Source of the DNA: Anaerolineae bacterium
GTDB taxonomy: Bacteria; Chloroflexota; Anaerolineae; B4-G1; SLSP01
Direction of reading: 5' to 3'
DNA length: 64,000 nt
Assembly: GCA_016931185.1 (NCBI GenBank)
Contig: JAFGFI010000018.1
Location: 1,135-65,134, forward strand
Under the pieces are notes generated by a model. It worked only from the letters and a program-made list of their open reading frames with translations. It did not search any database and was not told where the DNA came from. Shown here one piece after another: positions 42,555 through 64,000 of the stretch. A program made the translations under genes and the position numbers. The stretch's first letter is position 1; every line of letters starts with the position of its first letter.

Positions 42555-43562
42555 ATGATTAAGATTAAATCTTCAGAGATTACGCCGGAGCACGTGTATC
42601 TCTCGCGGCGCAAGTTTTTACAAGCAATGGGTATGATAACCGGGCACGCATTATTGACAGCGTGCCGTGGTCCGGGACAGTCTACAAGCATGCCAGCAGC
42701 GGATGTGGTTGCGCCGGTTACGTCTGTACCGCATGAAACACAAGGCGCGCAAGTGGCGACCAAAGCCGAGAGCTTACCAACCGCGAGTGCGGCGGCTGAC
42801 GAGTTAGGCAATGCACTCACACCTCTTGAGGCGATTGCCAATTATACAAACTACTACGAGTTTTCGGTGAGGAAAGAGGCCGTAGCCGGACTGGTAGGCG
42901 ATTTCGAGACCTCGCCCTGGAGCATCCAGGTTGGTGGCCTGGTAGAGAAACCCAGGCGATTCGATCTCGATGACCTGCGCAAGTTTGAGTCAGAGGAACG
43001 TATCTACCGGATGCGTTGTGTTGAAGCGTGGTCGATGGTGATCCCGTGGCTCGGATTTCCACTGGCAAAGCTGTTGAAGGTAGTTGAACCGCAATCCAAC
43101 GCTAAGTACGTACGATTTGAGACGTTCTACGATCCCAACCAGATGCCGGGCACTAAATCCATGTCACTGCCCTGGCCTTATGTTGAAGGGCTGCGATTGG
43201 ATGAAGCACTGCACGATCTCACATTGCTGGCTACCGGTCTGTATGGTAACCCTTTGCCCGTGCAGAACGGCGCGCCCGCGCGCCTGGTAGTGCCCTGGAA
43301 ATACGGGTTTAAAAGCATCAAGTCTATCGTCAAGATTGAATTGGTGGAGTACATGCCCACCTCACTTTGGATGGCGTCAGGGCCAAACGAATATGGCTTC
43401 TGGGCTAACGTCAACCCAGATGTACCGCATCCGCGCTGGTCCCAGGCGACCGAACGTCTCATTGGGGAAAATAAACGTCGCGCGACGTTGTTGTTCAACG
43501 GTTATGCAGAAGAAGTGGCGGAGCTTTATCCGGATCTTGATGACCGGCAGTGGTATTACTGA
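42555..43562 (+). CDS. msrP: Protein-methionine-sulfoxide reductase, molybdopterin catalytic subunit
   Basis: Tat-like [30 protein letters not shown] closely resembles the YedY/MsrP core. Confidence 0.85.
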
Positions 43563-44176
43563 TGTTAAATCGAACATGGTGGAAGCGACACGGGTTCCTA
43601 ATTGCCGTTCATATTGGCGCACTGTTGCCGTTGGGCTTACTCGTGCTGGATTATGCGCAACAACGATTCCTGGTTGATCCGGTGCGGGAGATTATGACCC
43701 GCACCGGTAGAATTGCGTTAACGGTGCTGTTGCTTTCTCTGACTTGCACGCCCGTTTATGTGCTTTTCCGCTTCAAGCCTGTACTGCGCGCGCGCCGTCC
43801 TTTAGGATTATATGCCTTTCTCTACGCTATGATCCACTTCTTAACATTTGCCGGATGGGATTACGGCTTTAACCTACGCCTTCTTTGGCAAGCCATCACT
43901 TATCAGCGTTTTATCATTGCCGGTGCTATCGCTCTCATCATCTTATTGCTCCTGGCAGTCACATCCACCCAGGAGTGGCAACACCGGTTGGGCAAACACT
44001 GGCAACGGTTGCATCGTACCGTCTACCTGGCGGCCATGCTGGTCATCCTCCACTTTTTCTGGCTGGCAAAAACTCCAGACCGTCCCATGCGTTATGCGCT
44101 GTTGCTAGGGGGACTCCTTATGCTGCGCTTGCCGCAAATAAAACAGGTGGTTACTAACATTCGAAAGGGAAAGTAA
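43562..44176 (+). CDS. msrQ: Protein-methionine-sulfoxide reductase heme-binding membrane subunit
   Basis: Six-TM ferric-reductase-like protein with conserved His residues. ATG 43562 overlaps the msrP stop as TGATG. The track start at 43550 is GTG. Confidence 0.8.
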   Translation: MLNRTWWKRHGFLIAVHIGALLPLGLLVLDYAQQRFLVDPVREIMTRTGRIALTVLLLSLTCTPVYVLFRFKPVLRARRPLGLYAFLYAMIHFLTFAGWDYGFNLRLLWQAITYQRFIIAGAIALIILLLLAVTSTQEWQHRLGKHWQRLHRTVYLAAMLVILHFFWLAKTPDRPMRYALLLGGLLMLRLPQIKQVVTNIRKGK

Positions 44177-50646: not shown

Positions 50647-51044
50647 GCAGATCTGTATCTATCATCAGAGTTCGCGGATCGAACTGTTACTCCCCAATAG
50701 CCGCCGCCGATGACTGAGACGGCCCCTTGCCATTGCGGCGGAGATTACGGACCACTAATGGTCCATTGTGGAACTACTCTGGTATCACGTCCCGCAGCCG
50801 CCATGCTTGCCTAGACGGCGGGGGCGCTCTTCCCAAGCTTTCTTGGCGCTCAAAAAGCAGTGGCTGAGTTAACCATGGTTCCTGTGATACTACCAGTGAA
50901 TGCAATTTGCATTTTATTTAAATACTATCTATAATAAAAAGTAAAGTGCCCCCACCATAACGGAAGCAGTTACCCGATCAGGTGGCATCAACACCGAATC
51001 GAACCCTTAGCTATTATGGCTAAAAAACATCTAATATAATCACA

Positions 51045-51081
51045 ACACGCCGCCTGGTCAATAACGAACTAGGCGGCGTGT
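51045..51081. other. 11-bp GC-rich hairpin in the island junction
   Basis: ACACGCCGCCT (15-nt loop) AGGCGGCGTGT. No adjacent U-tail on the plus strand. An A-run lies about 17 nt upstream, which is a T-run on the minus strand. Confidence 0.35.
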
Positions 51082-51385
51082 CACATTGATAGAAGATTGT
51101 TTAATTTGATATCGTCCCATATTGTGGTTTAGACTGATATTGCACCTGAGCAAGTAAGGTAGGAAAAGATTCTCCACACTATTAAAGATAACGAGAACTA
51201 TCGGCAGATACAAGGCAAATATCCATGGTTTAGATTTCACGCACTCAATAGTTTGGCGGGGCGAGTGGCAGTGACTTGGCAACGAAGGAACGTAGGTCAT
51301 TATGTAACTCAAGCTCAAAAACTTTACTCCCCTTCCCTTTCAATGATAGGGTGACAACTTGAATTATGTATCAACAAGGAGGGAT

Positions 51386-54300
51386 ATGATGGTCAACATT
51401 AATGCAGCGAGTAAAGAACAGTTAGTTAAGCTGGCGGGAATTGGTGAGGCAAAAGCTGAAAAGATCATAACTTTTAGAGAATCTGGTGGTATCATTAACA
51501 ATATCGAAGAACTAAGGAAAATCGCTGAAGTGCAACCGCATTACTTGGCGGCACTAGAGGCAGAAATTGATTTTCATTTAGATGAAAACTCTGATAGTTT
51601 GTCTTTTATAACTGCACGGCCTTCACTTGACCTAATATCCAAACCACAAATATCTTCCGTGTTCCCAACTGATCCCTACACACCCGTAAAACCTTTGCCA
51701 TTACCTCTCTTTGGTGCCTATCAATTCACAGTGAATTTTGAGAGAATGAATAATTGCCCATTGCCCGATCTTTCAGGATATCAGTTGCTGGTAGGATATC
51801 GCATTGGTAATGTCATCACGGAATCCAAAACCCATATTCGGGAACGGACAAAAACTTATAATCTTGGTAAAAAACCTGCAATTACTATCAGTATCCCTAA
51901 ACCATTCTTGCCGGCTGCTTTTTTGGAGAATGAATTTGAACTTATTTTGTTATCTCCCGAAGAGATTACGGTATACCGTTCGTCTTTTGAGATTGATGAG
52001 GGCGATCAAGTAACAATTGGTGTCCCGCTCTATGGACAACAAACATTGGAAATTACCTGGAATAAGAATGTCGATTACAGAGGTCTCTCTTTAGAGTTAG
52101 CGTATTCGATGAATAGAGGCGCTTCAGGGATAATCGAAAGCACAAAGTCTTTTGAGTTAGGAGGAGAAGAATCTCTACAAGTTGAGTTTGATACATTTGG
52201 GCAAGTGGAAAAGCTCAGTGTTGCAGTTTACTCTAATGAAGGAATTCTTGTTTATCACAGCAAATCTACTTGGGCGGAATTGGGGGGCACAGGAAATGCA
52301 AAAAGCATAAAATGTAAGCTACCAATGCCTGAGGAAATTATATTCAATGTATCGCTTGGGCAAGGTTTATACCAAGATCATCAATTGGTGGCTAACTTTT
52401 ATATACTCGATGAAAAGACACTTTCAACCATCTGTCAGATAGAAGAAAACTATTCGATTACCTCGGAGGGGAAGTCTAAAGTTAAACTGGCTCATTACGG
52501 GCTTGTCAAAGAAATTACACTGACAGTTTATGCTCCTGCGGGGGAAGTTATTGGTAAAAAGACAATAATAAATACAGATTGGAGCGATGGAGGCACAATT
52601 ACAATTGATGCGCCACCGCGTCAACGTGCTGGGGGCAGTGGGCTTGATGAAACGCTTCCTAACCGCCCGAAAAAGACTACAGGACGGGCTATTGACGTAA
52701 GAGGGAAGAAAAAGCTTGAGGGTATTCAGATCATAATCTATGCTTCAAAAGTTCCAAACCCGCAAGAGGCAGATTATGTGCCTCTGTTAGTGCTTCAAAC
52801 CGAGACGGACGGATATTTCTTGTTTGATACGCCAATAGGGTATTATGAGAAAGCGTATGCTATGGTAGGAACACCCAAAAAGGGCGAAGCTGAGAAAGGT
52901 GTATGTAAAGTTGATATCTGTCTTGAACCGGACTTTGTAGAAAAACTCCAACAAGGTGGCCCTCCTAAGAAAGTTGAAAAAAAATTCTTCCCGGGGCGCT
53001 TGCTTTTGGTTATTGATGCTGAATCTGAGTCGCATGGCAAGGATGGGGGCGATTGCGACGATTGCAAAGACTTGAATTTTCATCGTCACAAAGCAGTCGT
53101 AGATGAATTCTCATACTATACAGTGGTTCGAACCACTGAACCTGACATTCAAGGGTATACATTGGAAGAGGATGGGGATGTAACTCTCCAAAAAGTCTTG
53201 GAAGTTGCACCTATCGTTGGGGAAGATGCGAACAGCATACCTCTTGCTATGCGATTTCAGCCAGTGCGTCGCTCCATATTGAATAAATATGTGAATGACC
53301 GGCGAGGTTTGACACTAACAACATTGAAAAAAGCATTGGCAGAAAGTAATGCACGGAAATTGCGGGAACTTATTAAGCCAACGCGCCGCCATCAAACACC
53401 AGGAAGGCACACGTTAGATTTAGATCATGCTATTGATTGGGATAAAGACCCCACTATTTATCAAGCTACAACAATCGCTCATGGCCACTTACTGCACTAT
53501 AAGCAGGAGTGGAAGAACAACGGGTTCGGCATAGGAGATTTGCTCTACAGTTTACCGCTTGCTCCCGGGCAGCAAAAACAAATTGTAGTATTTGACTGGG
53601 AACGCCGTGATTCAGCAAGCCGCAGCGAATCTCTCGATTACCAAGAGAGTCTCTACAATTCCTTAACTCGTGATCGTGATGTAAACGAGATTGTTACGGG
53701 GGTCTTGCGTGAAAGTGTGCGCGGCGGGTCAACAGCTAAAACATCGTCTCGTTCCGGGGGATTGGGTATTGCCGCCATTTCTGGCTCAGTAGGGGGGCTG
53801 TTGGGGATTGCAGGCGGTTCAAGTAAGTCTAGTTCCACTGCTTGGCAAGACTCTTCTCGCAATACAGCATTGCAGGACATGCAACAAATTCGTGACCGGA
53901 CCGTTCAGTCGGCGAACTCGGTCCGTAGTCTGCGTAGCACTGTGGTGACCACGGCAACTCAAGGTGAACGCTTCTCGGTGGAAACAGAGGTTATTGCGAA
54001 TTATAATCACTGTCATTCACTCACAATGCAATACTTCGAAGTATTGCGGCATATGCAAGTTGAAGTACGACTTTCATCAGTGCAAGAGTGTCTATTCATT
54101 CCTTTGATAATGTCGTCTTTTGATCACCAAAAGATTTTACGTTGGCGCGAACCCCTTGCCGGATACATACTTGATGAACAGCTACGCTGTGGCTTTGATG
54201 CAATAGGGCGGATCGAAAACGATTATGAGGGAAGTGACTTGCCTGAAGGTATGTATGCAGAAGATGAAATTGAATACTGGTCTGGTGATTTATATATCAA

Positions 54301-56545
54301 ATTTGATATTCCCTGCCCGGCAGATCTGGAACTCTTTGAAAAAAAGGAGGAGTTGCGTGAGGCTTTATCGCCTTTTATATTCTGGGGATCTTCCATTGAT
54401 CGGTTAATTGACAAAGTTTATGAACAAGCGGCTAACAAGCGTAATGAAGCCTTCTACCGTTTCGTAGCCCCCGAAATTGCAGCGGCAATTGCAGATAAGC
54501 TGCGATTTACAGCAGTTATTCGGCAAGAAAGTAATGAATACTCCGTAGAACTAAATGTTGATACAACACTGGTTTCACGGTTCCAAAATGGACAAAACCA
54601 TTACATCAGCGTGCGAGAACTTACTAGGCAAACTCCCATCAAGCGCATAGATATTGAGGCTATTACAATCCATATTGATGCAAGCACACAATTGAAAAGC
54701 GGCGAGAGCATTGAAGAATTTTTACCCAGTAACACACGGATCATTGTAACCTCAGGCAGTATGAACTATCGCAGTAAGCACTATTCAGGGCTTTTATTCA
54801 AGTCTTCGCGCATCAACAACGACTTAGTTGGCTATGGGGGGGTTTCTTCTAATGATTACGTACGTATCCCAACCCCACTGAGTCACGAGGAAATGCGAAA
54901 CCCCCGGAACGAGGATCTCGAATCAGCCGATCATCTGCGACAGCATTTGAATGACAATCTGGAGTACTATCACAAAATCATCTGGATGAATATGAGCCCA
55001 GAACGTCGCTTTATGTTCCTGGATGGCATTCGGATAACCGATTATTCGGAAGGGGATCGGTATCCTTCTGGCGTGATCAGAAGTGTTGCTTCAGTTGTGG
55101 AAAACAGAGTGATTGGTATTGCCGGGAATAGCTTGGTGATGCCGGTGGCCCCGGGTTTTCGATTGGATCCCAATACACGCGGCCAATATGTAGACCTTCT
55201 TTCCCTTTATCAACCATTGACTCCAGTTGAACCCATTAATATCACGATACCAACGAAAGGCGTATTTGCCGAAGCAGTCATAGGAAAATGCAATAGTTGT
55301 GAGAAAATCCAAAATGATCGCTTCTGGAAATGGGAAGAACATCCAATACCTCACGCACCGACTGAAATTGCAGCAATCGGCACTGAAAGCCGTCGTAGCG
55401 CGCCGCTTGATACTACACCTTCAAGTCTTCCTAATCCTGTGGTTAATATTCAAAATGCCCCGGCGATTCCTGATCCTACAGGGTTATCAGCCGCCGCCAA
55501 CTTGTTAGAACAGGCACGTTTTGAGGATATCACCGGCTTAACTCAGAACCAACAAAATGCCCTGGAAGCATTAAAAGCGTCGCTTAGTGCAGCTCAGGCA
55601 TTTGGTTCGAAGGCTGGCGATATGGCAGCGTTGGGAGCGCAACTTGATAGTATCAGGATCGCTAAAGAAAACAACTTGATCGGTGAAGACAAAGCGCGAG
55701 AACTGAGCGAAAAAGCAATTGAGAATGCTGCCGCCGGTGGGGGAACACCGATTACTGAAGGCTTGTCTGAGTTGAAAAAAGTTCGGGAGATGGCAAAAAA
55801 TGGCACGATTACTGGGGATGTGGAACAAACCGTTACCGACGCTGTTGTCAGTAAAATTAAGCAGGACGCTCAAGGAAAGAAAGATAGTGATATTGGTCAA
55901 ATCATAGATAGAGGCGCATCATTGGTGGGAACAGGTATGGTTACAAATATGACTGCAAAGGCCACTGAGCCGGATGGTAAAACGTCCGAATTGACGTTAG
56001 CGAGTAGCGTAGTAGCTATGCCCCCCACGCCAAAACTGATACTAAGGAGAACAGGAGTTGAGTTTGAAGTTAGCTGCCCCACTGATTTTAGCCCGATTAC
56101 AATTGGTAATTTCAGAACTGTATGTGAGAACGGGAAGCTATATTATTGGGATACTACTGAGTCAGATAAGAATCATAAAAAATTGGTAAAAGGATATCGG
56201 AGCAAGTTAATTGTAGAAAATCCAGATGGCACATCTGAAGAATTTGATGCAATTGAACGGGCTAATGGTTTTACGCATCTTAAAGAAGGCACCTATCAAG
56301 CTACCTGTGAGCCAAGGGCCAGCCATCAAGATAAAGAGGAAATATTGGTGAAGGAGGCCATCTTCATCCATGTGGCAAACTACCCATATCAATTGCATGG
56401 GTGCATTGCACCTGGAGAAATTTGGCCGGAATTTGGTGTTTCCAATTCTACAGCCACATTAGCTAGAATCAATAGCCTCTTGGGATGGGAAAGCGGAAAG
56501 AAAATCGAGCTCGTAGTGAAAGGTTACAAGGAAAAGCCTGGATGA
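51386..56545 (+). CDS. Giant multidomain protein of unknown function (HhH, 3 beta-sandwich-like repeats, CarboxypepD_reg-like, conserved core with glycine-zipper, YkuD-like HGC C-terminal domain)
   Basis: Track ORF 51359..56545 has a TTG start. AAGGAGGG lies directly upstream of ATG 51386. ComEA-like HhH NAASKEQLVKLAGIGEAKAEKI. Glycine zipper GLGIAAISGSVGGLLGIAGG. C-terminal IHVANYPYQLHGCIAPG. Confidence 0.7.
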   Translation: MMVNINAASKEQLVKLAGIGEAKAEKIITFRESGGIINNIEELRKIAEVQPHYLAALEAEIDFHLDENSDSLSFITARPSLDLISKPQISSVFPTDPYTPVKPLPLPLFGAYQFTVNFERMNNCPLPDLSGYQLLVGYRIGNVITESKTHIRERTKTYNLGKKPAITISIPKPFLPAAFLENEFELILLSPEEITVYRSSFEIDEGDQVTIGVPLYGQQTLEITWNKNVDYRGLSLELAYSMNRGASGIIESTKSFELGGEESLQVEFDTFGQVEKLSVAVYSNEGILVYHSKSTWAELGGTGNAKSIKCKLPMPEEIIFNVSLGQGLYQDHQLVANFYILDEKTLSTICQIEENYSITSEGKSKVKLAHYGLVKEITLTVYAPAGEVIGKKTIINTDWSDGGTITIDAPPRQRAGGSGLDETLPNRPKKTTGRAIDVRGKKKLEGIQIIIYASKVPNPQEADYVPLLVLQTETDGYFLFDTPIGYYEKAYAMVGTPKKGEAEKGVCKVDICLEPDFVEKLQQGGPPKKVEKKFFPGRLLLVIDAESESHGKDGGDCDDCKDLNFHRHKAVVDEFSYYTVVRTTEPDIQGYTLEEDGDVTLQKVLEVAPIVGEDANSIPLAMRFQPVRRSILNKYVNDRRGLTLTTLKKALAESNARKLRELIKPTRRHQTPGRHTLDLDHAIDWDKDPTIYQATTIAHGHLLHYKQEWKNNGFGIGDLLYSLPLAPGQQKQIVVFDWERRDSASRSESLDYQESLYNSLTRDRDVNEIVTGVLRESVRGGSTAKTSSRSGGLGIAAISGSVGGLLGIAGGSSKSSSTAWQDSSRNTALQDMQQIRDRTVQSANSVRSLRSTVVTTATQGERFSVETEVIANYNHCHSLTMQYFEVLRHMQVEVRLSSVQECLFIPLIMSSFDHQKILRWREPLAGYILDEQLRCGFDAIGRIENDYEGSDLPEGMYAEDEIEYWSGDLYIKFDIPCPADLELFEKKEELREALSPFIFWGSSIDRLIDKVYEQAANKRNEAFYRFVAPEIAAAIADKLRFTAVIRQESNEYSVELNVDTTLVSRFQNGQNHYISVRELTRQTPIKRIDIEAITIHIDASTQLKSGESIEEFLPSNTRIIVTSGSMNYRSKHYSGLLFKSSRINNDLVGYGGVSSNDYVRIPTPLSHEEMRNPRNEDLESADHLRQHLNDNLEYYHKIIWMNMSPERRFMFLDGIRITDYSEGDRYPSGVIRSVASVVENRVIGIAGNSLVMPVAPGFRLDPNTRGQYVDLLSLYQPLTPVEPINITIPTKGVFAEAVIGKCNSCEKIQNDRFWKWEEHPIPHAPTEIAAIGTESRRSAPLDTTPSSLPNPVVNIQNAPAIPDPTGLSAAANLLEQARFEDITGLTQNQQNALEALKASLSAAQAFGSKAGDMAALGAQLDSIRIAKENNLIGEDKARELSEKAIENAAAGGGTPITEGLSELKKVREMAKNGTITGDVEQTVTDAVVSKIKQDAQGKKDSDIGQIIDRGASLVGTGMVTNMTAKATEPDGKTSELTLASSVVAMPPTPKLILRRTGVEFEVSCPTDFSPITIGNFRTVCENGKLYYWDTTESDKNHKKLVKGYRSKLIVENPDGTSEEFDAIERANGFTHLKEGTYQATCEPRASHQDKEEILVKEAIFIHVANYPYQLHGCIAPGEIWPEFGVSNSTATLARINSLLGWESGKKIELVVKGYKEKPG

Positions 56546-57204: not shown

Positions 57205-58617
57205 ATGCCCACTCAAGCGGATTACGAAACAGATGGTATCTTACCTATCATCTATCAACAACTACGTTCTACATTGATAGACTGCGGCCCCTTCTCCAGT
57301 CACGACGAACTCAAAGCCGTTTTCGTCGACAACCGCATCCACCCTTGGCGCAAGTGGATACCTGAAGCCAAAAGCGCCAGCAGCCGCGTCGAAGCCGTTA
57401 TTGACTTTCTCTACAACCAATATACCAGTACGCAGGACAATGCTTTGGTACTGCTGTTGCATGTGTTGAGCGAACGCAAAGAAACTGGTGATGCTTGTCA
57501 TCAAAAGTTGTTCAAATTAGCTGATGATCTCAGCAAAGGATTAGAATCCCATCTTTCTCCTGATGGAACACCACTAACACCACCACCCGATATGTTGCCC
57601 CGGAAATCCTACGATCACTTCACAGGCCGTGCGAAAGAACTACAACAGTTATTGGATGCGCTCCGCAACCCAGATCAGTACCAGTTGATTGCTATATACG
57701 GGTTGGGCGGTATTGGCAAAACTGCATTGGCCCGCGAAGCGTTGGAAGATTGCCGCGATGAGAAATTATTCCAGCACATCGTTTGGATGAGTGCCAAGAC
57801 AGAGCGTTTTGAAGGGGAGGGGACCCATAGACTACCGGTTTCTTCTTTTTCTCTTGACGACATTCTGAATGAAATTGCGCGCCAGTGTCACTTGCCTCAT
57901 CTAGCAAAACTCCCGTCTACAGAAAAGGTTGCGAATATCCAACACATTCTGGCTAACCGCCCTGTGCTCATCGTATTGGACAATATGGAAACGGTCAAAG
58001 ATTGTAAGGAAGTTGTAGGACAATTGGTCGAACTTTTAACAGGGCAAACCAAGTTTTTATTGACCAGCAAACTCCATATTACAAACATCAGCGCTTTTGA
58101 AATGCGCTTGCTAGGGCTTTCACCAGAGAATGGCGAGCTTTTTATGCGTCGCGAAGGCCGCAGTCAAGGTGCATCGGAAGTTGCGGATGCACCTTCAGAC
58201 ATACTTCAGAATATCGTGGGGGTATGCGGCGGTGCTCCGTTAGCGATGAAATTGATCGTCAGCCAATTAAAGCGCCGCGCTTTACAAGATGTGCTGGATA
58301 ATCTTAAAGTGGTTACGTCTGATGGCCCCGACTACGACTTCTACCGCTTTATTTACAAAGGCTCTTGGGATTTATTGAGCTTGGATGCCAAAAAAGTGTT
58401 GGTTTCGATGTCAGTCTTTGATTTGGAGAGCGGTGGGCGCGCTGATATGATGCGCGAGGTCAGCGATGTGGCCCCAGATGCCTTTGAAGACGCGGTGGTT
58501 GAACTGGTGATGATGTCATTAACGAACCTGGTAGGGCAGTTAGGCCAACGGCGCTACACACTGCATCAATTGACCTACTATTTCATTTTATCAGACATTG
58601 TAAAGAAATGGGGGTAA
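57205..58617 (+). CDS. NB-ARC (AP-ATPase) STAND NTPase with N-terminal helical adaptor-like domain
   Basis: Walker A IYGLGGIGKTALA, Walker B VLIVLDNME, GxP motif CGGAPLAMKLI. About 140 aa of helical N-terminal extension. Confidence 0.8.
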   Translation: MPTQADYETDGILPIIYQQLRSTLIDCGPFSSHDELKAVFVDNRIHPWRKWIPEAKSASSRVEAVIDFLYNQYTSTQDNALVLLLHVLSERKETGDACHQKLFKLADDLSKGLESHLSPDGTPLTPPPDMLPRKSYDHFTGRAKELQQLLDALRNPDQYQLIAIYGLGGIGKTALAREALEDCRDEKLFQHIVWMSAKTERFEGEGTHRLPVSSFSLDDILNEIARQCHLPHLAKLPSTEKVANIQHILANRPVLIVLDNMETVKDCKEVVGQLVELLTGQTKFLLTSKLHITNISAFEMRLLGLSPENGELFMRREGRSQGASEVADAPSDILQNIVGVCGGAPLAMKLIVSQLKRRALQDVLDNLKVVTSDGPDYDFYRFIYKGSWDLLSLDAKKVLVSMSVFDLESGGRADMMREVSDVAPDAFEDAVVELVMMSLTNLVGQLGQRRYTLHQLTYYFILSDIVKKWG

Positions 58618-58620
58618 AGA

Positions 58621-59829
58621 GTGATGAGTGAAGAACCTGAATGGCTGTCATTTTATCAAGATCGGGGACGCCGGCACGCAACCCTGGCATTAGCGTTTGC
58701 AGTACAGCACGGGCAAAATACACCGGAGGCACATCAGCAGTTGGCACAGGAACTCCCCAACATGGTCAGGGCGCTAGAGTGGATGCAAACGCACACTCAC
58801 TGGCACAATATCGCACATTTGTTCTCGGCTTTGTGGGAAGAAAGCCGATTTCTACAGGATCGTGGCCCGGCTCCTGCGTACCTCATTGAGGGAAAAGGGC
58901 ATTTGCTGCCTGCTGCCGATTTGCTCCCCCTGCTGGAAATGGGTGTGCTGGCGGCACGCGAACTAAAGGATAACCATAAACTATGCATGTGTTTAAACGC
59001 ACTGGGAAGCACGTTGCGAGCAATGGGCAAGGTTGATGAGGCGCTTGCGCTACATAATGAAGCCTTGACCATAGCACAGCAATTCGAGGATGCATCTCCT
59101 GCGCGCCAGACGCTTTCTCTTTTGGGCATGGTGTGGATTGATAAAGATGTAAACCAGGCGTTACCTCACTTGCAAAAGGCACTTAACACACCAGTATCCC
59201 ACACCAATGTGGAACTGGATATTGATCTCTTTGGCGCACTTGCAACCGCTCACGCGCAACTGGGGCAAATGGCATTGTTGAACCAGCTAAGCGAGCCGGG
59301 AAAGGCGGCTTTCGAGAAGGCCGCTACCTATCTGGAAAAGGCATTAGGCTTAGCAACAAAATCCCAGGATAAGCGACGCCAGGCAGAACTATATCACCAA
59401 CGTGGGTATTTGCGCAGCGTTACAAATGACTTGGAGAATGCGCGTGCCGATTTTCAGCAGGCTGCCGACCTTAGTAAAGAAGTAGGCCATCAATGGGGAT
59501 ATGGACGAGCTTTACAGGCTTTAGGAGTTCTGCGTATACAAATCGGGCAGGTAGCGCAGAACACCAATAAAGTCGCGCTAGGTATCACCGATTTAGAAAA
59601 GGCTCTGACGTTGCTAGAACAAACCGGGGATGGAGAAATCATAGCTTCCACATTGGCAGCCTTAGGCCAGGGATATGCGCTTTTGGGGCAGTTAGATATG
59701 GCAAAAGCACATTTGGAACATGCATTGGAAGTTATCAAGGCTTTTAGTGATTTACCCAAGATCGCAGCCTTGGAACAGGCGATTTTGCCGTTATTAGCTT
59801 ATGTAAAGCAAGCGAAAGGAGAAAAGTGA
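58621..59829 (+). CDS. TPR-repeat protein (expected sensor arm of the preceding NB-ARC module)
   Basis: 402-aa ORF, same reading frame as 57205..58617, separated by TAA plus one codon. Repeated A..Y...G / L..A..I helical pairs (ALALHNEALTIAQQFED, AELYHQRGYLRSVTNDLENARADF). Confidence 0.75.
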   Translation: MMSEEPEWLSFYQDRGRRHATLALAFAVQHGQNTPEAHQQLAQELPNMVRALEWMQTHTHWHNIAHLFSALWEESRFLQDRGPAPAYLIEGKGHLLPAADLLPLLEMGVLAARELKDNHKLCMCLNALGSTLRAMGKVDEALALHNEALTIAQQFEDASPARQTLSLLGMVWIDKDVNQALPHLQKALNTPVSHTNVELDIDLFGALATAHAQLGQMALLNQLSEPGKAAFEKAATYLEKALGLATKSQDKRRQAELYHQRGYLRSVTNDLENARADFQQAADLSKEVGHQWGYGRALQALGVLRIQIGQVAQNTNKVALGITDLEKALTLLEQTGDGEIIASTLAALGQGYALLGQLDMAKAHLEHALEVIKAFSDLPKIAALEQAILPLLAYVKQAKGEK

Positions 59830-59830
59830 G

Positions 59831-60892
59831 ATGGTTATACCAGCTTTGATGATCGGATTGTTAATTGCTAAAGGACTGACGGTGGTCGGACCAAAGCACG
59901 AATACCTGGAAAAACATGATCCAAATCTCCCCTTCTACGAAGAAGACACTTTTCCTACCTTGTTGGAGAAAATAGCGCCTTACACACATTCGAGGTTTCA
60001 GCTACACATAAATCGTTCGGCCGATCTTTTTGCTCAATTACACACAATGTTGATGCTTTTGCAAGGGGCAACTATGGATTTCGCAAAGGGTAGGATTGAT
60101 CATTCCAACATGCAGCCAGGGTATCAGTATGATAATTACGAAACTATTCTTGTGAATGCTTATAGTAATGAGGAGGACAAAAAGATAATTGACGGCAAAC
60201 TAAACGCAATTTCCAAAGTATCTGATGAGAGCTTTGGTGAGTATATTATTGATCATTACCAAGATATGGCGAAGTGTTTGGTGGGATATTTGGATATAGC
60301 ATCGAAATTAACAAACGGTTTTGACATTTCGGGCTGCTTAAATGAATGTCAAAATACCATAGGGAAGTTACCACCCGGTGACTCTATTAAAAAGACATGC
60401 ATGACTGAGTTCCTGGCATTAACGCGCCTTCTGTTTTCTGGGGTAGATTTAAAGAAGGTGCTGGACTTAGCTACTAACTTAAATCTAAATGTTCCTCCTC
60501 ACGAATGGCTTGATCAACAATTATCAGCGGGTACCCTATGGCAGGACGTGGTAAATTATTATGCTTCTCCTGCCGCTACATCTAAGGCAAAACTTACCCT
60601 GAGTCATATCTATGTGATGTTGGAAGAAAGTTATTGGTTTTACAATAGAATTCGCTATAAAGACCCTCATAATCCGGAGATGAGCAACAATCGATTAGGC
60701 ATAGATTTTAAATGCGCGATCGGATTTGATGATGAAGGAAAGTGTGACAATCTAAATACAGGCCAACTTCCTGCTGGATACCAAGCCACATGGGAGAAGT
60801 TGCGTCTGGCGTTACATGGCGCAGTCGCGTGGTATATGTATTGCCTCTGCGCTTATGCAGTAAATGAGATTAAAGCTGCGTTAACCCCGTGA
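59831..60892 (+). CDS. Orphan protein with N-terminal hydrophobic helix
   Basis: 353-aa ORF. Its ATG lies 1 nt after the TPR stop, which suggests translational coupling. N-terminal MVIPALMIGLLIAKGLTVVG. No recognised domain. Confidence 0.5.
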   Translation: MVIPALMIGLLIAKGLTVVGPKHEYLEKHDPNLPFYEEDTFPTLLEKIAPYTHSRFQLHINRSADLFAQLHTMLMLLQGATMDFAKGRIDHSNMQPGYQYDNYETILVNAYSNEEDKKIIDGKLNAISKVSDESFGEYIIDHYQDMAKCLVGYLDIASKLTNGFDISGCLNECQNTIGKLPPGDSIKKTCMTEFLALTRLLFSGVDLKKVLDLATNLNLNVPPHEWLDQQLSAGTLWQDVVNYYASPAATSKAKLTLSHIYVMLEESYWFYNRIRYKDPHNPEMSNNRLGIDFKCAIGFDDEGKCDNLNTGQLPAGYQATWEKLRLALHGAVAWYMYCLCAYAVNEIKAALTP

Positions 60893-60983
60893 TCTCTACT
60901 CGCGGGCGGTTGCGTGAGTGTGGGCAGAACCGTGTAAATGTCGGTTCTACTCTACATATCACTTGTTATAAGGAGAGTGAGCA

Positions 60984-63900
60984 ATGACTGAGCAATCCAC
61001 GTATCAGGATTTTGATGTATTCCTAGACTGTAAATTGGATGCGAACAATAATTTCCAAAACATCACACTTAAAGATGCTGAGGGTAACAAATGTACAGTT
61101 CATTACAACTTTTCAAAACCTGTTGGGAGGATTAAAAAAGCGATGGCAATGGCCAAGCACACTACAGAATCTTCTCAATGGCTAGACGAATTAGGCGCGG
61201 AACTTCAAGGGCTTTTCTTTCCCAATACCGGTGAAGGCCGCAACTTAACTGATAAATTCTGCGGGTTTCTAAAAAAGTTGGGAAACTCAGGCAAGGCGCG
61301 GCTCCGGTTATTTTATCCCAACGATGTGAATAAAATTATTGCGTTGCTGGGTGTTCCCTGGGAGTATCTCTATCTAGACTCGCAGTGTACTGGATTAGAA
61401 AAGAGTTACTTGTGCCTCAACAAACGTTTTTCGCTGGTGCATTGTTTGATCAATAAACCAGAAGAACTTGGCAAATGCGAACACTTACCTCTTAAAGCAT
61501 CTTTCTATATGCATTTAGAGAATGTGCAATCGGTAATTAAGGAGCTTGATATAATTCAATATTTAGCTCTTGGAGAAAAAGAAAAGCTTGCATTCGCAGG
61601 GAATGACCCTCAGAGGAAAGGCGAAATAGATTTGCTTGTTCAGCGCGCTAACGATTTGGTTATTATGTACAAGGAGATAGCCTATGATCTGAAGCAGTCT
61701 GGGCGCCCTCATATTATCCAACTATCAGGATATCATGAGATGCTAGAAAAAGAACATATACAGTGGGCAACTGAGACCTTTGACATAATCCAATATTTGG
61801 CTCATGGAGATATTGACGGACTGGCGTTAGCAAACGGTGACACCTACAAGAAAGCAGAAATAATAAACGATATTCAGAAACCTAAGACTAAAGTTGTTAT
61901 TCTAGGTGTGTGTAGTAGCGCGAGTAGTTACTCAGGAGCAGCCGTGGCTTTCCATGAAGCCGGTGTCCCCATTGTCGTTGGAATGACCCAGATAACCGCT
62001 ACATCCGTAGCCAGTAGTTTCTTAGAAGCCTTGTACACGCAGTTAGCAGAACGTCTGTGTAGTGTGGAAGAAGCGGTGGCAGTCGCTCGGAGTCAGTTAT
62101 ACGAAGAGAAGGGTTGCGATCAATTTTCTTTGCATTGGGGAATACCGCGCCTCTTTATGCGCAGTACTCATAGCGACCTCATTGACCGACAATCCTTGTA
62201 TGAACGTGTCTATAACATATCCACTTGCAAAGAAATCAGAGAAAAAATCCTGCCACCGGAACAATCGATAGATATTCAATCTTTTGTTCGTTGGTCAAAA
62301 ACTTTGAGAGAATGGATTGATAGCGAGAAAGTAGGCATGCTTTATCTTTATGGCCGGGATGGGAGTGCCAAAAGTACCGAGGTGGCGCGCTTGTTACACG
62401 AGTACGATGGACAGAACAATAAACCTAAGCTGTTAGGCCACTTTTGCCGTAATGATGATCATCAAACTTCTAATCCTCTCATATTCGTTCGCGACTCGCT
62501 GTACCCCCAGCTTGAAGATTACTATGGGGCTGACTTTTATCGAGGATACTTGAGAGGGGTGTTTCCTAGGGCTGCTTATGACGCTAGATTTGCATTTTAC
62601 AATCTATTTCTCCTTCCCCTTAGCCGAATTCGCGAGAAAAACCCAGAGGCCCGTTTGCCTACAATTATTATCGACGCAATTGATGATGCTGTAGCGCGCT
62701 ATCCAAGCGAGTCTATTCTTGATCTGTTAATTGACCACCAACATGCGATCACCCAAGTTGCTCGCGTGATCATTACCGGTAACTACTCAGAAGAACCTGA
62801 TTCTCCTCATCAACGCATTCGCGTGGAACTGGAACCGGAGATTATTAGCATATCAGAAGATATTATATCTTGTGGACAACTACCAACCATCAAAGAGACT
62901 GATATTGAAGAAAAGATACCAGATGCATCGCTGCGAGCGCTCACTTTTAAGCACATAAACGAAATTTGTGAACCGGAGCAAAAAATGCAATTGTGGCGCT
63001 TCTTGTCGGATTGTGGTGCTGATCTGCGCAAAGTCTTATGTGGGATAAGCAAGTCGGACAAAAAACCGCTTCCATTGGAAAACTACTATCAAGCGTATTT
63101 GGATATTGTGAAGAGTAAGAATGAATATGCTGAAGACTTGCTACGCGTGTTGCTTGTTGCATATAGACCGCTCTCGGCAAAGTTTTTGAAACAACTTTTT
63201 CAAGAAGTAGAAATCTTGAATGTTTCAAAGGTTATGGACGAGATGCCGGCATTTATTCATAGTACGGATAGTGTTTACACATGTCACAGCAGTATCAGAC
63301 GCTTTCTAAATGAAAAACTTTTCTTTTGCCCCGATCCTAACAAAATCATAAAACCCCCGCGTGATGAAAGTCTTAAGCCGAATTATAGCGCCAGGTCAGA
63401 TGCTCATGGTTTTTTTATGAATTTATATGCCGGGGAGGAGATGGTCAAATTGCAAAATTGGTATGAATTGAATGAAAAATGGGGGAACTATGTTCAAAAT
63501 TACCTACCTTTGCATGCCTACAAGTGTTATCAGTATGCCTGTTATGGTTATATGGAAATATCAAATGAAATTGATGATCCTGCGGAACTTTGGGATCACT
63601 TTTCCCAAGAGTATGACCAAGGAATCAGAGATGGTGAATATTATACGCGGTCTAGTCTGGGAAATTTAAATTATGTAGACGGGCAGTCTTGGAATAGGCG
63701 TTCTCTTAGTGCAATGGCATTTCTACACCTTATCAGCCAACCTTCTTTTCGCGAATTCCGTATGTACACAGAAGGCACAGAGGCAGTTGTTGACGATATG
63801 CTTTTTGGTTTAAGAGTTACTTTGTTTGAACACATGTTGAACCTTTCAATTATGCTTGCTCCCAATTATGGATCAAAAGAATACAGTAAACATAGACAAG

Positions 63901-64000
63901 GTTTTGCTCGCTTGATAACAGCTTACGAGCATATTCTGGACATTTTAACGGAGGATAAAGAGAAGGAGTTGATCGGCCTCGAACGAAAAGTACGAGGGGT
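60984..64000 (+). CDS. CHAT (caspase-fold) protease fused to a P-loop STAND-like NTPase; 3' partial
   Basis: Not in the ORF track because no stop occurs before the window end. My hand translation from ATG 60984 (AGGAGAG upstream) stays open to 64000. LRLFYPNDV...LGVPWEYLYLD. His in QYLAHGD (codon about 61803-61805). Cys in VVILGVCSSASS (codon about 61911-61913). P-loop-like LYLYGRDGSAKST and Walker-B-like PTIIIDAIDDA. Confidence 0.75.
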   Translation, partial: MTEQSTYQDFDVFLDCKLDANNNFQNITLKDAEGNKCTVHYNFSKPVGRIKKAMAMAKHTTESSQWLDELGAELQGLFFPNTGEGRNLTDKFCGFLKKLGNSGKARLRLFYPNDVNKIIALLGVPWEYLYLDSQCTGLEKSYLCLNKRFSLVHCLINKPEELGKCEHLPLKASFYMHLENVQSVIKELDIIQYLALGEKEKLAFAGNDPQRKGEIDLLVQRANDLVIMYKEIAYDLKQSGRPHIIQLSGYHEMLEKEHIQWATETFDIIQYLAHGDIDGLALANGDTYKKAEIINDIQKPKTKVVILGVCSSASSYSGAAVAFHEAGVPIVVGMTQITATSVASSFLEALYTQLAERLCSVEEAVAVARSQLYEEKGCDQFSLHWGIPRLFMRSTHSDLIDRQSLYERVYNISTCKEIREKILPPEQSIDIQSFVRWSKTLREWIDSEKVGMLYLYGRDGSAKSTEVARLLHEYDGQNNKPKLLGHFCRNDDHQTSNPLIFVRDSLYPQLEDYYGADFYRGYLRGVFPRAAYDARFAFYNLFLLPLSRIREKNPEARLPTIIIDAIDDAVARYPSESILDLLIDHQHAITQVARVIITGNYSEEPDSPHQRIRVELEPEIISISEDIISCGQLPTIKETDIEEKIPDASLRALTFKHINEICEPEQKMQLWRFLSDCGADLRKVLCGISKSDKKPLPLENYYQAYLDIVKSKNEYAEDLLRVLLVAYRPLSAKFLKQLFQEVEILNVSKVMDEMPAFIHSTDSVYTCHSSIRRFLNEKLFFCPDPNKIIKPPRDESLKPNYSARSDAHGFFMNLYAGEEMVKLQNWYELNEKWGNYVQNYLPLHAYKCYQYACYGYMEISNEIDDPAELWDHFSQEYDQGIRDGEYYTRSSLGNLNYVDGQSWNRRSLSAMAFLHLISQPSFREFRMYTEGTEAVVDDMLFGLRVTLFEHMLNLSIMLAPNYGSKEYSKHRQGFARLITAYEHILDILTEDKEKELIGLERKVRG

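Follow-up and report, generated by a model that had tools for sequence, protein, structure and literature searches.

We analysed a stretch of 64,000 nucleotides, referred to below as the window, from an Anaerolineae bacterium of the Chloroflexota (GenBank assembly GCA_016931185.1, contig JAFGFI010000018.1, positions 1,135 to 65,134 of the forward strand). It holds a complete gene at 51386..56545 on the plus strand, stop codon included, which encodes a giant protein of 1,719 amino acids (aa). Judging from the sequences, this giant belongs to a large family, as yet without a name, of proteins that combine "carrier plus warhead" in a single gene. A core of ~1,000 residues (aa ~430-1450) defines the family across more than 10 phyla, and the C-terminal enzyme that it carries is exchangeable and in most cases cuts cell wall. 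We tentatively favour the reading, to which we give nearly even chances, that the members are antibacterial polymorphic effectors that attack the cell wall or envelope and leave the producer independently of Sec. An earlier note on this DNA, made by a model from the letters alone, had the order of the domains right, and nearly all the features it listed were recovered in our analysis; the nucleic-acid-sensing or chromosome-associated role that it proposed for them was not borne out.

The exchangeable C-terminal domain

The giant parts from its close relatives within a helical linker (aa ~1366-1540; 55481..56005, plus strand). AlphaFold2 predicts helices over aa ~1366-1450 and beyond, where the earlier note had expected a long helical region, and the similarity to the relatives stops at varying points within this linker (aa 1439-1549). 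The last ~170 residues of the giant are common to none of the 151 other close relatives.

The domain that follows (aa ~1545-1719; 56018..56542, plus strand) is assigned to DUF5675, a YkuD/C82-like family, on the basis of Pfam and PHROGs. The C-terminal 281 aa searched alone score 28.7 bits against a cut-off of 26.7, the whole protein scores 25.0 bits, just under that cut-off, and the match of the domain to phrog_1501 has an E-value of 7.9e-7. DUF5675 has been classed as C82-like, i.e. YkuD-like (bioRxiv 10.64898/2026.04.11.717860), in keeping with the YkuD-like end that had been read from the translation; there is no match to Pfam YkuD itself. An HGC motif (aa 1671-1673) lies within IFIHV...LHGCIAPGE (aa 1656-1678). 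We predict from these sequence features that the tail of the giant is a cysteine enzyme active on peptidoglycan, and it would be expected to act on the peptide stems. The tail has no match among structures or PDB sequences, and a metagenome scan with it found nothing. A weak match to a Sushi/CCP module (factor H-related protein 2, E ~0.02) with two spaced cysteines, which immediately precedes the DUF5675 domain at aa 1551-1589 (56036-56152), is probably due to chance.

Of the more than 3,000 cluster representatives, the 150 closest were used for a census of tails. By similarity, the 137 tails of more than 140 aa in length form 49 clusters, and the 12 cores nearest to the giant carry tails of seven different clusters, with one relative being tail-less. 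Tail families were assigned from Pfam scans of 56 representatives and from precomputed annotations of fragments. The largest cluster (30 members) is Peptidase_C70; by eye, the second-largest has the HExxH motif of a zincin and the third the GHSRGG nucleophile elbow of an alpha/beta-hydrolase, apparently a lipase. Peptidoglycan enzymes are represented by Peptidase_M23, Amidase_2, GH25, Muramidase, Peptidase_M15_4 and YkuD, together with DUF2272, a papain/CHAP-like peptidase family (PMC10318531), and wall-binding tails by PG_binding_1 and OmpA. Other tails are Peptidase_C11, reprolysin-like and M43 metallopeptidases, GH75 chitosanase and tyrosinase. The recognisable tails are thus all directed, as judged by their domain families, at the cell envelope or at extracellular polymers, and no nuclease, deaminase or ADP-ribosyltransferase was found among the 56 scanned tails.

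An independent link between the core and wall hydrolases comes from two loci in which a wall-binding or wall-cutting protein is encoded by a separate gene directly after the giant, at a spacing of 12-32 bp. One is a PG_binding_1 plus Peptidase_M15_4 protein (locus L008, 14387-15208) and the other an SH3_3 protein with an apparent CHAP-like region (locus L012, 10799-11470). Two short family fragments on long contigs (P0233 and P0239), tested as orphan cassettes, are uninformative, having the look of broken-up pseudogenes or of frameshifts from assembly.

The conserved core and its glycine-zipper segment

An exhaustive HMMER search with aa 560-1400 yielded 3,391 representatives of 50%-identity clusters at E<=1e-3 and, among them, 1,664 at E<=1e-30. 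It thus defined the family that the earlier note had proposed to look for around a conserved-looking core. The best 150 matches are nearly all giants, with lengths of 1,100-2,600 aa. When 152 relatives were mapped on the giant, aa ~450-1450 were covered almost completely, aa 1-300 by ~9-12 relatives and aa 1600-1719 by one. The word-indexed homologue searches are to be read by the length of the query: the one with the whole protein gave three matches only, the candidates being apparently of about query length, the one with a 511-aa query gave only proteins shorter than 900 aa, mostly contig-end fragments, and that with a 118-aa profile only proteins of up to ~200 aa. Pfam, NCBIfam, PADLOC and PHROGs contain nothing that matches the core, and neither its single sequence nor a profile of the family alignment matched any PDB sequence. 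Our literature search found no paper on the family.

The family-wide conserved region begins with a transthyretin/CarboxypepD_reg-like beta-sandwich (aa ~430-545; 52673..53020, plus strand), which AlphaFold2 models with a predicted local distance difference test (pLDDT) score of ~90. At the CarboxypepD_reg-like segment claimed earlier, a confident sandwich is predicted, its PDB matches are only weakly transthyretin-like (Foldseek E 2e-3 to 4e-2, template modelling (TM) score on the target 0.4-0.55), and Pfam CarboxypepD_reg is matched at 4.9e-4 by one homologue and not by the giant itself. The Cys/Asp cluster DGGDCDDCKD, also listed in the note, follows at aa 553-562 (53042..53071, plus strand), and its CxC pattern recurs in the family consensus.

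The main part of the core (aa ~565-1345; 53078..55420, plus strand) is of no known family or fold. Its motifs are DWD (685-687), HGH (699-701), LPLAPGQ (724-730), NYNHCH (872-877), CNSCE (1302-1306) and RFWKWEE (1312-1318), and both AHGH...LPLAPGQ (aa 698-732) and NYNHCH sit in invariant or near-invariant columns of the family alignments. The invariant His/Cys motifs (HGH, NHCH and CxxCE) suggest a metal site or a catalytic centre in the core. An intein or HINT-type reading of NHCH was considered and set aside; there is no Pfam Hint match, and the motif lies inside a predicted beta-hairpin.

Two AlphaFold2 models, of aa 420-1460 (mean pLDDT 74.6) and of aa 680-1340 (mean pLDDT 75.8), are mutually consistent. 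In the predicted order, the beta-sandwich and a helical segment are followed by a hairpin with a 28-residue strand (aa ~698-739) that bears HGH and LPLAPGQ, then by a low-confidence stretch of ~90 residues, a helix of 22-24 residues and a second hairpin with a 29-residue strand (aa ~862-907) that bears NYNHCH. A confident alpha/beta body (aa ~960-1300) comes next and ends in the invariant CNSCE, and behind it lie a proline-rich stretch and the long helical linker. We dropped a reading of the long hairpin and the "spine" helix as HK97-capsid-like, there being no capsid among the Foldseek matches. The matches of the 1,041-aa model in the PDB are dominated by the transthyretin-like domain, and a structural search of BFVD found one uncharacterised giant-virus protein (Yasminevirus, E 7e-6).

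Between the very long hairpins lies a glycine-zipper segment bracketed by Ser/Thr-rich tracts (aa 780-826; 53723..53863, plus strand). The zipper itself, GGLGIAAISGSVGGLLGIAGG at aa 791-811, is a repeated GxxxG inside the low-confidence stretch, and the most hydrophobic 19-mer of the giant is this internal glycine-rich segment, at aa 793 (Kyte-Doolittle 1.58). The zipper pattern is kept in all 23 aligned relatives, and AlphaFold2 pairs the surrounding Ser/Thr-rich tracts at low pLDDT as a hairpin, which has the zipper at its tip and stands between 28-residue strands. We regard the segment as a candidate membrane-insertion element from its pattern and its modelled position.

With the second model, which leaves out the sandwich, 30 of the 50 top Foldseek matches in the PDB, all of them weak (E 0.011-1.3), are beta-pore-forming toxins: aerolysin, lysenin, epsilon toxin, parasporin-2, Clostridium perfringens enterotoxin, iota Ib, anthrax protective antigen (PA) and leukocidins. 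We take this likeness, seen in a predicted model, as a lead only, and any long hairpin may draw such matches. The Ser/Thr-flanked pattern of an insertion loop is present and conserved, at low model confidence, and a glycine zipper fits the segment equally well.

N-terminal modules, gene surroundings and distribution

The N-terminus of the giant is a ComEA-type helix-hairpin-helix (HhH) at aa 3-59 (51392..51562, plus strand), as the note had it. Pfam HHH_3 is matched with E 1.7e-13 and 50.9 bits, above the gathering cut-off of 27, and the best PDB sequence matches of the giant are ComEA structures. On the ComEA family model TIGR01259 the giant scores 41.5 bits, far under the NCBIfam cut-off of 152.35. 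The HhH was found in 36 of 136 full-length close relatives (about a quarter), and by this sequence survey it is an accessory module and not family-defining. The three beta-rich modules listed behind it (aa 100-215, 216-318 and 319-412; 51683..52621, plus strand) proved to be mutually homologous repeats by hhalign (probability 90-95%, E 1.7e-8 to 1.7e-6), and the coverage profile shows an N-terminal arrangement with three such modules in only ~9-12 of 152 relatives. In ComEA itself the HhH acts outside the cytoplasm, and hence binding of extracellular DNA by the HhH of the giant is plausible. We infer that the HhH and the three beta modules form an optional binding module, e.g. for extracellular DNA or a surface ligand.

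The reading frame is uninterrupted, begins with ATG and has AAGGAGG a few bases 5' of it. An Anaerolineae protein from a metagenome-assembled genome (MAG), identical to the giant, is in the databases under the name "helix-hairpin-helix domain-containing protein" only. A relative of 58% identity aligns collinearly over aa 2-1447, which shows that the open reading frame (ORF) is a real conserved gene and not a sequencing artefact, such as the interruption that had been raised as a doubt. The frame could be extended upstream by nine codons at most (to TTG at 51359), so that a hidden or missed signal peptide is impossible for the giant. Its lack of a signal peptide, claimed from the start, agrees with the folded HhH from residue 3 and with the relatives: by N-terminal hydrophobicity, on which we judged signal peptides, none of the 137 full-length relatives has a signal-like N-terminus. 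Pfam and NCBIfam show no trafficking domain in the giant. It was rightly called atypical for a surface adhesin as well, having no export signal and no adhesin Pfam families.

A scan of GTDB species genomes by pattern matching gave 337 loci among 185,579 genomes, a sporadic distribution. We retrieved 80 of the 337, from more than 10 phyla, and called their ORFs crudely as the longest ones. The carriers include Bacteroidota, Chloroflexota, Actinomycetota (Streptomyces, Mycobacterium), Legionella, Myxococcus, Bdellovibrio, Desulfobacterota, Verrucomicrobiota, Acidobacteriota, Gemmatimonadota, Melainabacteria, a heliobacterium and others, and copies on plasmids or megaplasmids occur in Streptomyces, Ralstonia, Bacillus, Nostoc and Haladaptatus. 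Family members or fragments were also seen in a Nitrosopumilus MAG (L028), on Haladaptatus plasmids, in the fungus Dendryphion nanum (P0248) and possibly in Yasminevirus; these archaeal, fungal and giant-virus occurrences reflect either inter-domain transfer or binning and contamination.

The genomic neighbours, whose definition the note had also proposed, are not conserved. When the 1,013 ORFs around the giants of 83 loci were clustered by BLAST, no conserved neighbour turned up except generic ABC ATPases, and in a Pfam census of 150 immediate neighbours, which are mostly housekeeping, none of the 138 families occurs in more than four loci. No conserved operon, secretion system or immunity gene was found near the giants in the 80 loci. 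The sole link to a secretion system among them is an Hcp gene 12-33 bp after the giant in two Chitinophagaceae loci (L057, 13435-13935; L059, 3353-3856), with Pfam T6SS_HCP matches of E 1e-17 and 5e-21. In genetic terms the giant gene is autonomous, and no secretion, immunity or phage genes travel with it.

Two family members stand in tandem in eight loci (L055, L065, L066 of Mycobacterium, L072, L075, L076, L080 and L081), e.g. one of 1,821 aa followed by one of 1,369 aa. In L055, L076 and L081 an ORF of 92-96 aa with no Pfam match lies between them, and such loci may represent a variant of two components, with the product of the small ORF as an adaptor.

The G+C content of the window is ~0.52-0.55 at 46-50 kb and drops from ~50700 on, to ~0.45 in the giant gene and to 0.42 where the window ends; a non-coding gap of 740 bp (50647-51385) lies upstream of the gene. 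Directly downstream on the same strand is a run of genes of the conflict-system type (57205-64000). It consists of a STAND NTPase with a bDLD1 (bacterial Death-like domain) and NB-ARC (57205-58617), a TPR protein (58621-59829), a 353-aa protein with no annotation (59831-60892) and a CHAT-protease/NPHP3_N STAND protein of at least 1,005 aa that starts at 60984 and runs past the window end. The fall in G+C and the upstream gap suggest that the giant and the STAND genes are in a horizontally acquired stretch, which has a methyltransferase, a MiaB-like radical SAM enzyme and an amine oxidase as housekeeping neighbours. The linkage of STAND/CHAT genes to the giant was not seen at other family loci. 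Ordinary housekeeping genes with no relation to the giant lie further upstream at 42555-44176: one for a sulphur-transport protein and a pair of MsrP/MsrQ type, Oxidored_molyb and then a Ferric_reduct membrane protein. Scans of Rfam, promoters and terminators gave nothing useful.

Comparison with known systems and competing explanations

In our favoured reading, the effector would get out of the producing cell without Sec, on its own or when the cell lyses, and its core would deliver the C-terminal enzyme to an envelope membrane or through it. The membrane step might be made by the Ser/Thr-bracketed glycine-zipper hairpin between the very long beta-hairpins, in the manner of beta-barrel pore-formers and translocases. 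The warhead of the giant would be the YkuD-like cysteine enzyme working on the peptide stems of peptidoglycan, and the HhH with the beta repeats would add the optional binding. We also speculate, with considerable doubt, that one polypeptide exports itself with no Sec, Tat or dedicated apparatus, its oligomerising beta-barrel or glycine-zipper core carrying a covalently attached, freely exchangeable envelope-degrading enzyme across a membrane. Such self-translocation would make the family a one-gene "translocator plus cargo" weapon used in more than 10 phyla, by monoderm and diderm bacteria.

A close parallel is with the polymorphic toxin systems, i.e. the CdiA, Rhs, LXG, MafB and MuF toxins (Zhang, Iyer, Aravind et al. 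2012, PMC3482391). Like them, the giants have a long conserved N-terminal or central region with variable, exchanged C-terminal enzymes (49 clusters among 137 tails), a sporadic distribution, a gene prone to horizontal transfer and tandem paralogues in some genomes. Unlike them, the giants have no two-partner secretion (TPS) module, PAAR/VgrG, LXG/WXG, MuF or Sec signal and no adjacent immunity gene, orphan cassettes were not seen, and the tails found are directed at the envelope alone, nucleases, deaminases and ADP-ribosyltransferases being absent from those scanned. A term search of the text of PMC3482391 did not find the core among the families described there. In architecture the giants resemble polymorphic toxins, yet they lack two defining features, the adjacent immunity gene and the known trafficking module.

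For the membrane step, the core shares very long beta-hairpins with the beta-barrel pore-formers (aerolysin/ETX-MTX2, lysenin, anthrax PA and iota-toxin Ib). It also has, at low model confidence, a flexible glycine- and hydrophobic-rich loop with Ser/Thr flanks, a pattern that marks the insertion hairpins of those toxins. PA and Ib translocate enzymes through their barrels. The giant differs in being several times larger, in having the enzyme fused in cis to the putative translocator, and in showing no significant match to the pore-formers in sequence or structure (E >=0.011; no Pfam match). Repeated GxxxG zippers within moderately hydrophobic stretches are known from membrane-active toxins, namely the N-terminus of Tde1 of the type VI secretion system (PMC10240207), TelE of the type VII system (PMC10434224) and EsxX (PMC12744356), and in Tde1 the zipper is required for the effector to cross the target-cell membrane (PMC10240207). 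Theirs is part of a small helical domain in a secretion-system substrate, whereas that of the giant is an internal loop of a ~1,000-aa core with no identified secretion system.

Modular toxins with a C-terminal wall-directed killing domain also include colicin-like bacteriocins (the colicin M family, PMC5821083, and pesticin), and the class III bacteriolysins (lysostaphin, zoocin A) are modular with a wall-directed killing domain. Colicins have no signal peptide either and are released by lysis, but their operons carry immunity and lysis genes and the proteins have defined receptor and translocation domains; the bacteriolysins are small and Sec-secreted. The core is common to no colicin-like bacteriocin or bacteriolysin, and the giant belongs neither to the colicin-like bacteriocins nor to the glycine-zipper effectors. 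As for ComEA, the giant shares its type of N-terminal HHH_3, but it has no membrane anchor and the HhH takes up 57 of its 1,719 residues.

Several observations weigh against the favoured reading. Since no export route was identified, only the kinds of tail domain speak for secretion. The search for a cognate immunity gene of the giant gave none; the 183-aa gene downstream was rejected as a candidate partner, having a 43%-identical homologue on a metagenome contig with no giant nearby. The effector model leaves the invariant His/Cys motifs of the core unexplained. The glycine-rich segment is modelled at pLDDT <50, and the resemblance to pore-forming toxins is not significant, with a best E of 0.011 for a match of probability 0.18 and TM score <0.1, and with a probability of at most 0.35 and a TM score <0.2 overall. 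The tail census covers the closest relatives out of a much larger family, and several tail clusters have no recognised domain, such types making up about a quarter of the tails of the close relatives.

Two explanations place the activity of the tail on the own cell. The giant could be a self-directed suicide or lysis effector, serving abortive infection or programmed cell death, that waits in the cytoplasm until it is triggered, perhaps by foreign DNA that its HhH binds, whereupon its glycine-zipper core would breach the own membrane like a holin and the attached enzyme would destroy the own wall from within. The absence of a signal peptide from every member and of an immunity gene would suit it, as would the DNA-binding-type N-terminus, the sporadic distribution with swapped effector domains, which is as in defence systems, and the position of the window gene in a low-GC stretch directly upstream of the bDLD1-NB-ARC STAND, TPR and CHAT-STAND genes. 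We nevertheless consider it unlikely. No PADLOC family matches the giant, the neighbours at the 80 other loci are mostly housekeeping genes and not defence islands, and about three quarters of the close relatives have no HhH; GH75, tyrosinase and metzincin tails, and OmpA or PG-binding tails with no catalytic domain, would be senseless for self-lysis, and the adjacency of Hcp in two loci points to export. An alternative hypothesis could be that the giant is an endogenous envelope scaffold, which anchors or remodels the own wall for growth, for filament or septum architecture, or for DNA transfer across the wall. A ComEA-type HhH with a wall hydrolase is the combination of DNA-transport machines, many of the carriers are filamentous or multicellular bacteria, OmpA and PG_binding_1 tails exist, and the identifiable tails are all wall- or envelope-directed. 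We give this only a small chance, because the GTDB scan shows a sporadic distribution (337 loci in 185,579 genomes), the contexts vary and include plasmids, no conserved partner genes point to any machine, and the swapping of tails among close relatives, with protease, lipase-like and chitosanase types, fits weaponry better.

The role that the earlier note preferred, a cytoplasmic giant organised around its HhH that senses nucleic acids or associates with the chromosome, is very improbable in our view. The HHH_3 domain is genuine and there is no export signal; however, the HhH is accessory, the family is defined by its core and its envelope-directed tails, and the Pfam and NCBIfam scans show no other nucleic-acid-related domain. 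As the substrates of the tails lie outside the cytoplasm, the description of the giant as cytoplasmic-looking is probably misleading. The idea of a virion protein of a phage or mobile element in a prophage remnant, such as a tail-associated lysin or an ejection protein, draws on the giant size with a C-terminal lysin-type domain and on DUF5675 and phrog_1501 being common in phages, and is effectively refuted. Having no PHROG match, the core is not placed in any phage structural family, as the note had allowed it might be, and no phage genes flank the giant in the window or in the 80 loci. Only one of 50,697 phage records matches the family (L086, GenBank MT835996.1), and IMG/VR holds one family locus in 2.9 million contigs, against 337 in genomes. 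The matching record is an "UNVERIFIED Bacteriophage sp." of a faecal virome. Besides a family member whose tail is DUF2272, it codes for a sodium:solute symporter and an epimerase; no phage gene was recognisable in it, and it is probably bacterial DNA caught in a virome.

If the antibacterial reading is true, thousands of giant "hypothetical proteins" would become one effector family, with carriers among Streptomyces, Mycobacterium, Legionella, Myxococcus, Bdellovibrio, Flavobacteriia, Chloroflexota, Acidobacteriota and others. The present name "helix-hairpin-helix domain-containing protein" is misleading for the family. The logic of polymorphic effectors is known; what would be new is the delivery core, ~1,000 residues with a fold not in the PDB and with no paper, Pfam, NCBIfam or structure entry found, and the principle of delivery, too, has a real chance of being new. 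The family would offer a natural catalogue of lytic domains, all on a common scaffold, and a testable question: how a 190-kDa protein with no signal peptide or partner genes gets a wall-degrading enzyme outside the cytoplasm.

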